In this document: piece by piece, positions 7,615-8,952 of the stretch
Position numbering within the stretch: position 1 is the stretch's first letter
Layout: every line of letters starts with the position of its first letter
DNA from: Candidatus Cloacimonadota bacterium
GTDB lineage: Bacteria > Muiribacteriota > UBA6191
Assembly (NCBI GenBank): GCA_019454875.1
Contig: JACFNL010000052.1
Coordinates: forward strand, 1-25,258
Length of the DNA stretch: 25,258 nt
Direction: 5' to 3'
Translations under genes and position numbers: made by a program
The notes under the pieces: generated by a model
What the model was told of the DNA's origin: nothing
What the model saw: only the letters and a program-made list of their open reading frames with translations
The model's database searches: none

Positions 7615-8952
7615 ATGGAAAAACACCTGAGCTTTCTCACCCGCAAGGAAATCAAGGAGCTCCCGAAGACTGATTTGCATGTTCATCTTGATGGCTCTGT
7701 ACCACCGGCTTTGGTTTATGAGCTGGCTAAGGAACAGGGAATTGATTTAGTCAAGATCTCAAGGGACATGGGAATTGGAAATTTGGAAACAGGCAGTGTT
7801 GATGAACTGGAGACCAAGATATTTAAGGAGACCTATGATTCTCTTTCGGAATATCTGGTGCCGTTTGAGCTGATTAATGTGGTGCTTCGTTGTCCTGAGG
7901 GCTTAAAAAAGGCAGCCTATCATTTTGCCAGGGATAACTTTCGGGAAGGGGTCCGTTATTTTGAAGTGAGGTTTGCCCCTTAGAAGCACTGGCAAAGTTC
8001 GTTTGAGTGGATGGATATAGTGAGTTCTGTCAATGATGGATTGAAGCAGGCCGCAGATGAGTTTAACCAGAGGCCTGAAATTGTTTCAGGGCGTGAGCCT
8101 GAGTTTAAGTACGGTATGATTTTATGCGCCATGCGTATGATCAACCAGCATATGGGAGATTATTTCCGCTATCTGTATGAACTGCATGTGGGAGAGGATT
8201 TACAGAATCTATCTGCTATGGCCTCCATGGAAGTGGCTAAACTGTGTTTTATGTGTATGGAAGCCGGATTGCCTGTAGTTGGATTTGATCTGGCGGGACG
8301 GGAAGACGGATTTCCTGCCGAGGTGCATAAGGAAGCGTTTATCTACTGTTATGAGAGAGGAATTGGCACTACCTGTCATGCAGGAGAGGCCTATGGCCCT
8401 GAAAGCATGAAGTCTGCTGTAAAAGACTGTATGGTGAGGCGCATTGGACATGGAACGCAGCTTTTTAGAAAGCAGGCTATTCACAAACGGACTGCCGAGG
8501 GTCGGCATCTGACCCGTTCTGAAAGACGGGAATATGTTACGGATATTGTGGAATGGATTGCTGATAACCGTGTTGCTCTTGAGGTCTGTTTAAAGTCAAA
8601 CTCCCAGACTCTGCCTGAGTACCGTGATTTAAGTAACCATCCTTTTCCCCACTACATCAGAAACAAGTTTCGTATTGCATTGTCCACTGACAACCGGGCC
8701 ATTTCCCGAGTGAGTGTTACCGATGAATACGAAAGAGTCATCAATCTTTTTAATGTGAATGAAAGAGTCTTTAAAAACCTCTGTATTGGGGGATTTAAGG
8801 CGGCATTTTTCCCCGGGCCTTATTTGAAGAAACGGGAGTATATTGCTAAAATCATTGACTTCTACGAGGAAAAAATGGCTCAGTTTCGCAAGAAGGCTGA
8901 TGCTACCAAGCCTAAATATCGTGAAATGGATGAAACATTAGCAGACGAATAA
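7615..8952 (+). pseudogene. add: Adenosine/adenine deaminase family gene interrupted by a single in-frame TAG (7981-7983). The two ORF-track pieces 7534..7983 and 8011..8952 are in the same frame.
   Basis: N-part reads LPKTDLHVHLDGSVPP...GVRYFEVRFAP-TAG-KHWQ.... C-part reads ...GFDLAGRE..., TCHAGEAYGPES, RIGHG and ALSTDN, the metal-binding motifs of the ADA family. The stop falls exactly where ADA homologs carry Gln or Gly after RF(S/A)P. AAGGGAG RBS lies 5 nt before the ATG at 7615. Confidence 0.6.

Follow-up and report, generated by a model that had tools for sequence, protein, structure and literature searches.

Does the single in-frame TAG that interrupts a deaminase gene of a Candidatus Cloacimonadota bacterium represent a codon with a reading of its own, a gene that has been lost, or a base that is wrong? 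The DNA considered here (the window) is the stretch of 25,258 nucleotides that makes up positions 1 to 25,258 of contig JACFNL010000052.1 (assembly GCA_019454875.1). In it, TAG 7981-7983 interrupts a 445-codon gene of the adenosine deaminase (ADA) family at 7615..8952 on the plus strand, and shares its reading frame with the ORFs 7534..7983 and 8011..8952. The original prediction described two ORFs of one frame that are split by a single TAG, and the 445-codon joined translation confirms this, running from ATG 7615 to TAA 8950-8952 as one protein when the TAG is read through, with ...GVRYFEVRFAP before the stop and KHWQSSFEWMDIV... after it (the peptide around the stop being RYFEVRFAP-stop-KHWQSSFEW). 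The start given there for the earlier ORF, TTG 7534, had to be corrected to ATG 7615, as the latter is preceded by AAGGGAG at 7603-7609, agrees with the N-termini of homologues (MEKHL/M.K.L) and is the start of the 122-aa product called in GenBank. The features of the locus are as follows.

7603..7609, plus strand: Shine-Dalgarno-like AAGGGAG, read from the sequence, 5 nt before ATG 7615
7615..7980, plus strand: codons 1-122, with HxH (H22, H24) and C-terminal ...EVRFAP; hypothetical protein H3C47_10030 in GenBank
7981..7983, plus strand: TAG, codon 123; CAG or CAA (Gln) in every relative
7984..8952, plus strand: codons 124-445 and TAA, with HAGE (H255, E258), H279 and T358-D359-N360
8965..10356, plus strand: gene for an SPFH/Band_7 and MVP-shoulder-like protein (Pfam matches), 13 nt after the ADA stop
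Tryptic peptide of the ADA-family protein: HWQSSFEWMDIVSSVNDGLK

Apart from TAG 7981-7983 the gene shows no damage, there being neither a frameshift nor a further stop in 7984..8952. A single C-to-T transition at 7981 (CAG to TAG) would explain the stop. As the feature is a single codon, a chance statistic is inapplicable and the relevant comparison is with orthologues. An exact-sequence look-up identified the GenBank products of the gene as MBW7876312.1 (122 aa, H3C47_10030) and MBW7876313.1 (310 aa from GTG 8020, H3C47_10035), both annotated as 'hypothetical protein' in a MAG of Candidatus Cloacimonetes bacterium; the split of the gene is therefore already present in the public annotation, where it stands without comment. 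An internal restart at ATG 8011 or GTG 8020 was considered and rejected, as inspection of the sequence upstream of these two codons revealed no convincing Shine-Dalgarno or other ribosome-binding site and the resulting product would be without HxH.

With X at the position of the stop, the joined translation matches Pfam A_deaminase (PF00962) at 198.3 bits (cut-off 27, E = 2.3e-58). The motifs HVHLDGS, HAGE and STDN, which had been reported as retained in the two halves, were all found in it. Residues H22, H24, H255, E258, H279 and D359 are invariant in an alignment of 24 sequences that includes the window protein, which matches all 83 invariant columns of this family alignment, and its metal-binding and catalytic residues (HxH, HxxE, the later His and the zinc-binding Asp) align to those of ADA structures. 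By its gathering score and by its metal and catalytic residues alike, the protein belongs to the adenosine/AMP deaminase superfamily. The label 'adenosine deaminase' of the original prediction thus stands at the level of the family (PF00962); at the level of the equivalog it does not, as the scores against the NCBIfam adenosine-deaminase models (TIGR01430, PRK09358 series) all lie under their cut-offs, the best being those for NF006847 (225.8 bits, cut-off 412) and TIGR01430 (180.2 bits, cut-off 216.55). T358-D359-N360 is invariant in the subfamily and aligns with the 'tdd' of 6n91 and 6n9m, so that the canonical TDD is absent. At the wider stretch 8686-8697 (codons 358-361), the TDD of canonical adenosine deaminases is replaced by T-D-N-R (STDN), which is invariant. 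In mouse ADA, the second Asp of TDD contacts the purine. To judge from this substitution and from the equivalog scores under their cut-offs, the true substrate of the STDN subfamily may not be adenosine.

A search of protein collections returned thousands of relatives of the window protein, the best being 97% identical over its full length and about 40 more being 67-78% identical. The column of the stop is occupied by Gln in 23 of 23 aligned homologues, within the motif RFAPQ(K/L)H(W). Comparison of orthologues at this codon, proposed as a check in the original prediction, gave CAG or CAA at codon 123 in 20 of 20 related loci, with a stop in none of these (nor in any of the 23 aligned proteins). 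The 20 loci comprise 16 JGI metagenome loci and the loci L001-L004, with sources including GTDB genomes and an ENA contig; the JGI contigs were scanned with a back-translated YFExRFAP[Q/stop]KHW in which the codon was free to be CAA, CAG, TAA or TAG. The two nearest relatives, L022 (99% aa identity) and L001 (97%), both have CAG. Together with the Gln of the 23 homologues, this upholds the proposed CAG-to-TAG transition at a conserved Gln, the ancestral codon having been CAG. Among the compared loci the stop is unique to the window contig, and conserved recoding at codon 123 is ruled out by the CAG or CAA of all 20. The closest protein (P0123, locus L022, JGI metagenome 3300014202) is an intact 445-aa protein encoded in synteny with the window and differs from the window protein by four residues in addition to Q123. 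Searching the GTDB species genomes for the window strain itself gave only relatives at 74-78% identity, and a homologue search with residues 124-272 returned 9 distant or partial matches, with no fragment from the window strain among them. Two ADA fragments on long contigs (P0125 and P0127) were considered as further cases of split genes; their contigs L024 (ERZ28548090, coverage 0.55) and L025 (ERZ28548095, coverage 1.9) have ORFs that are broken throughout, and the fragments were rejected as artefacts of assembly quality rather than recurrent splitting.

Against L022 the ADA gene has a DNA identity of 90.5%, with 122 synonymous and 4 missense differences and an overall dN/dS of 0.006. The original prediction had also suggested dN/dS for the two halves, and both turn out to be under strong constraint in this comparison, upstream of the stop (25 synonymous, 1 missense, dN/dS 0.009) as well as downstream of it (97 synonymous, 3 missense, dN/dS 0.005). 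Against L001 dN/dS is about 0.009, with synonymous sites saturated. When changes are polarised with L001 as the outgroup, 52 synonymous, 3 missense and 1 nonsense fall to the window branch, and 42 synonymous and 1 missense to the L022 branch; the missense changes of the window branch are V48I, T137S and A194E, each at a variable column. For the part of the gene beyond the stop, 37 synonymous and 2 missense changes fall on the window branch; neutrality over the entire branch would have given about 140 missense changes, and any neutral phase is accordingly limited to about 4.5% of the branch at most (95% Poisson bound). The ADA-family protein is the best conserved of its neighbourhood, with an identity to L022 of 99.1%, the product of the downstream gene having 97.6% and those of two upstream genes 87-88%. 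What marks a pseudogene is therefore present only in part: there is a premature stop at a sense codon of the orthologues, with neither relaxed selection nor further lesions, so that if this is a pseudogene at all it is a nascent one. The low dN/dS and the bound on a neutral phase mean that the stop arose extremely recently, has not become fixed, or is not real.

Within the window, TAG is an ordinary terminator. The 23 other genes end in TGA (10), TAA (7) and TAG (6), and in two neighbouring genes (ending in ...GGSIRF and ...RPKSE/G) the terminal TAGs of the window, L022 and L001 align with one another, with the sequence beyond them not conserved among the three. The earlier statement that the genome is not recoded is hence borne out, both by the six other window genes that TAG ends and by the two terminators conserved in three related genomes. 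No tRNA genes were found in the 25-kb window and no Rfam families match it. The fold of the 126 nt that begin with the stop is no more stable than expected from shuffled versions (z = -0.02). A PYLIS-like or other RNA structure that would stimulate read-through was rejected on the basis of this z value and the lack of an Rfam match. As TAG is a conserved terminator and there is no RNA structure, Rfam match or tRNA, recoding is not supported; in terms of what would identify it in the window, the stop is unconserved, TAG serves as a terminator, and there is neither a stimulatory RNA nor a cognate tRNA.

A second assembly bears on the base itself. L021, a Logan contig of run SRR12344472 (3,098 bp), is 100% identical to window positions 4883..7980; it encodes the 122-aa product and has 7980 as its last base, ending without the stop codon. 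L023, a Logan contig of about 2.7 kb from run SRR21762700, is 100% identical to 10552..13226, and over the 5.8 kb of overlap the Logan contigs and the MAG contig agree at 100%. The same strain (at 100% identity) is thus present in two SRA runs, SRR12344472 and SRR21762700. The former, filed under PRJNA647942, consists of Illumina HiSeq reads from the metagenome of an anammox enrichment culture of Ca. Brocadia sapporoensis, for which a metaSPAdes assembly, 47 MAGs and PGAP annotation have been described (bioRxiv 10.1101/2020.12.03.409086). Judging from the 100% identity and the matching details of that study, the window MAG was probably built from this run.

A k-mer (de Bruijn) contig ends where reads differ in the base that follows. 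The end of L021 exactly at 7980 therefore indicates that reads probably disagree at 7981; the chance that a contig of about 3 kb would end on this exact base is roughly 3e-4 by our own estimate. The break suggests such a disagreement without identifying the alleles or their frequencies, and as simple SNP bubbles are normally popped by graph simplification, it may have a more complex cause. Exact look-ups with C-terminal products of 322, 313, 310 and 323 aa, and likewise with the Q-repaired 445-aa protein and the 463-aa product of the neighbouring gene, gave no contig beyond the NCBI record. None of these products is on record for a Logan contig, unlike those of the upstream genes. The gap downstream of 7980 would fit heterogeneity from 7981 onward, although it is no proof of it. 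The other Logan contig ends (4883, 10552 and 13226) were compared by codon position, in an arithmetic of our own that is not decisive, and gave no pattern that would tell SNP breaks from coverage breaks. The length of the Logan contigs (about 3 kb, as against 25 kb for the MAG contig) suggests low coverage or strain heterogeneity.

The ADA gene is followed, in the same reading frame, by the gene at 8965..10356, the 463-aa product of which has weak Pfam matches to SPFH/Band_7, MVP-shoulder and vault-repeat domains. This pair of genes is kept in L001, L022, L012 and L017 and not in the other ADA loci, and the two are probably co-transcribed, in which case a real premature stop could lower expression of the SPFH/MVP-like gene by polarity. 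Other parts of the window may be mentioned. The product of the gene at 2678-5290 (plus strand) has 870 aa, with a hydrophobic segment at its N-terminus and a very long Gly-Ser/GSGDGS low-complexity tract, encoded at about 3400-3970; the orthologues in L022 and L001 (781 aa in the latter) are of different length, and the tract is probably variable in length. At 10363-12638 an HPPD-like ORF (named from its translation) lies beside a homogentisate dioxygenase gene, both being intact, and HgmA Pfam domains were found for the latter on its Logan contig. There are also intact genes for pgi and transaldolase (18272-20836) adjoining an intact chemotaxis cluster on the minus strand (21682-25245) with CheB-, CheY-, CheD-, CheR- and CheW-like ORFs, all named from their translations.

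Taking the above together, we lean, with middling confidence, towards a nonsense allele that is real and very young, probably still segregates alongside the wild type, and was written into the MAG consensus. A C-to-T change at 7981 would have turned the CAG of the invariant Gln-123 into TAG, and nonsense and wild-type alleles would coexist in the population of the anammox enrichment culture; we infer both that the T is truly in cells and that the site is polymorphic. metaSPAdes collapses strain variants to one consensus, and the assembler would in this way have put the T allele into the consensus of the MAG. In cells with the T allele, translation would end after residue 122. To judge from the aligned ADA structures, the resulting fragment would contain the first barrel strands and the HxH ligands and no other catalytic residues, and would be inactive, as would a restarted C-terminal piece without HxH. 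In E. coli, spontaneous misreading of UAG mostly inserts Gln. Such misreading would supply at most a trace of wild-type protein, and these cells would have no active enzyme other than that trace from spontaneous amber read-through.

Against this reading stands the strong constraint on the gene, which makes it a poor candidate for a loss that is tolerated, and the T at 7981 may yet be due to an error in the library, the base calling or the consensus. That the true codon is CAG, the gene intact and functional and the MAG consensus wrong at one base, in a position of low coverage or prone to error, is the main rival, a tentative explanation which has to be taken seriously. It would fit the extreme purifying selection on the gene and the lack of any other sign of decay, in what is the most conserved gene of the neighbourhood, and C-to-T is a common class of damage and artefact. 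The short Logan contigs of the strain (3.1 and 2.7 kb) may mean low coverage, and the reads appear not to be unanimous, given that L021, apparently from the same run, breaks at this exact base. Speaking against an error, substitutions of this kind are rare in an Illumina-based metaSPAdes consensus, and since an assembler takes the better-supported branch, a good share of the reads should carry the T. The MAG and Logan contigs also agree fully in the rest of their overlap (5.8 kb), and a branch stop in Logan normally needs at least 2 k-mer observations per allele, which random error seldom provides. If on the other hand the T were the sole allele and the enzyme lost in a fixed young pseudogene, the end of L021 at 7980 would be coincidental or due to an unrelated cause in the graph. 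This we consider improbable. The T in the MAG consensus is in its favour, loss of a salvage enzyme is plausible in a long-term enrichment culture, and the window branch has more missense changes than that of L022 (3 versus 1), a hint, albeit a non-significant one. However, a clean fixed T should give a k-mer contig that passes through the stop, and the only Logan contig found ends before it; there are no further lesions, and the neutral phase is confined to 4.5% of the branch or less.

Functional decoding of the TAG, whether by programmed read-through, a suppressor tRNA or pyrrolysine, or alternatively a two-piece enzyme (122 and about 310 aa), is very unlikely. In its favour, the part of the gene after the stop shows no decay. 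When bacteria misread UAG spontaneously through near-cognate tRNAs, they mostly insert Gln, which here would bring back the wild-type residue, and termination is slowed when Pro is the last residue ahead of a stop. Yet the stop is missing from all 20 loci and all 23 proteins, including the relatives at 99% and 97%; the two neighbours keep TAG as their terminator in three related genomes, with unconserved sequence beyond it; and neither the fold (z = -0.02) nor Rfam nor the tRNA content of the window gives a corresponding signal. The Pro and Lys codons beside the stop are ordinary conserved coding positions of the family, and, as to a two-piece enzyme, ATG 8011 and GTG 8020 lack a convincing ribosome-binding site. 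We give equally little credence to a TAG that is real, fixed and tolerated by way of a near-cognate tRNA-Gln, or to fragments that reassemble as an active split TIM barrel. Were near-cognate reading true, the Pro-UAG-A context would help it and there would be little enzyme, of exactly wild-type sequence, the allele then being a strong down-regulator of the ADA-family enzyme and not a null. The options listed in the original prediction (recent pseudogene, sequencing or assembly error, leaky read-through) were thus a sound interpretation, each testable part of which holds. The TAG is a very young mutation, a variant of a mixed population or a base-call error, and not a new reading of the genetic code.

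What is new here is that the stop is unique to this contig, that an upper bound can be placed on the time for which the gene could have been dead, and that a second assembly breaks at the same base. The practical value lies mainly in annotation and quality control: MBW7876312.1 and MBW7876313.1 together are one ADA-family gene, which should be flagged as disrupted or as containing a possible consensus error. If the allele truly segregates in the culture, it would also be a minor case of loss-of-function variation in a member of the flanking community. Nothing new on the genetic code or on deaminase biology follows from it.

With the known systems of amber (UAG) recoding, namely pyrrolysine, the phage code that reads TAG as Gln, and suppressor tRNAs, the locus shares an in-frame TAG where relatives have Gln. 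It differs from them in that the window has one unconserved instance, TAG ends other genes and no signal or tRNA was found. As for the enzyme, adenosine deaminase (EC 3.5.4.4; E. coli Add, mouse ADA, PDB 6n9m and 1a4l) is of the same PF00962 fold family, and the window protein aligns to solved ADA structures with an E-value of about 1e-22. It has HxH, HAGE, the conserved His and the zinc-binding Asp, as does EC 3.5.4.4; unlike canonical ADA, however, the window subfamily has an invariant Asn in place of the second Asp of TDD, and the window protein is longer by some 100 residues through insertions. The closest likeness of the disruption itself is to nonsense pseudogenes and loss-of-function alleles of bacterial genomes and MAGs, which likewise have a single in-frame stop at a sense codon of their orthologues and are annotated by PGAP as two short ORFs, here two hypothetical proteins. 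The window gene differs from typical examples in having no second lesion and no relaxed constraint, which places it at the very youngest end of the pseudogene range, unless the stop is not fixed or not real. It is in this sense an ordinary single-hit nonsense disruption, of a kind that is common in bacterial genomes and MAGs.
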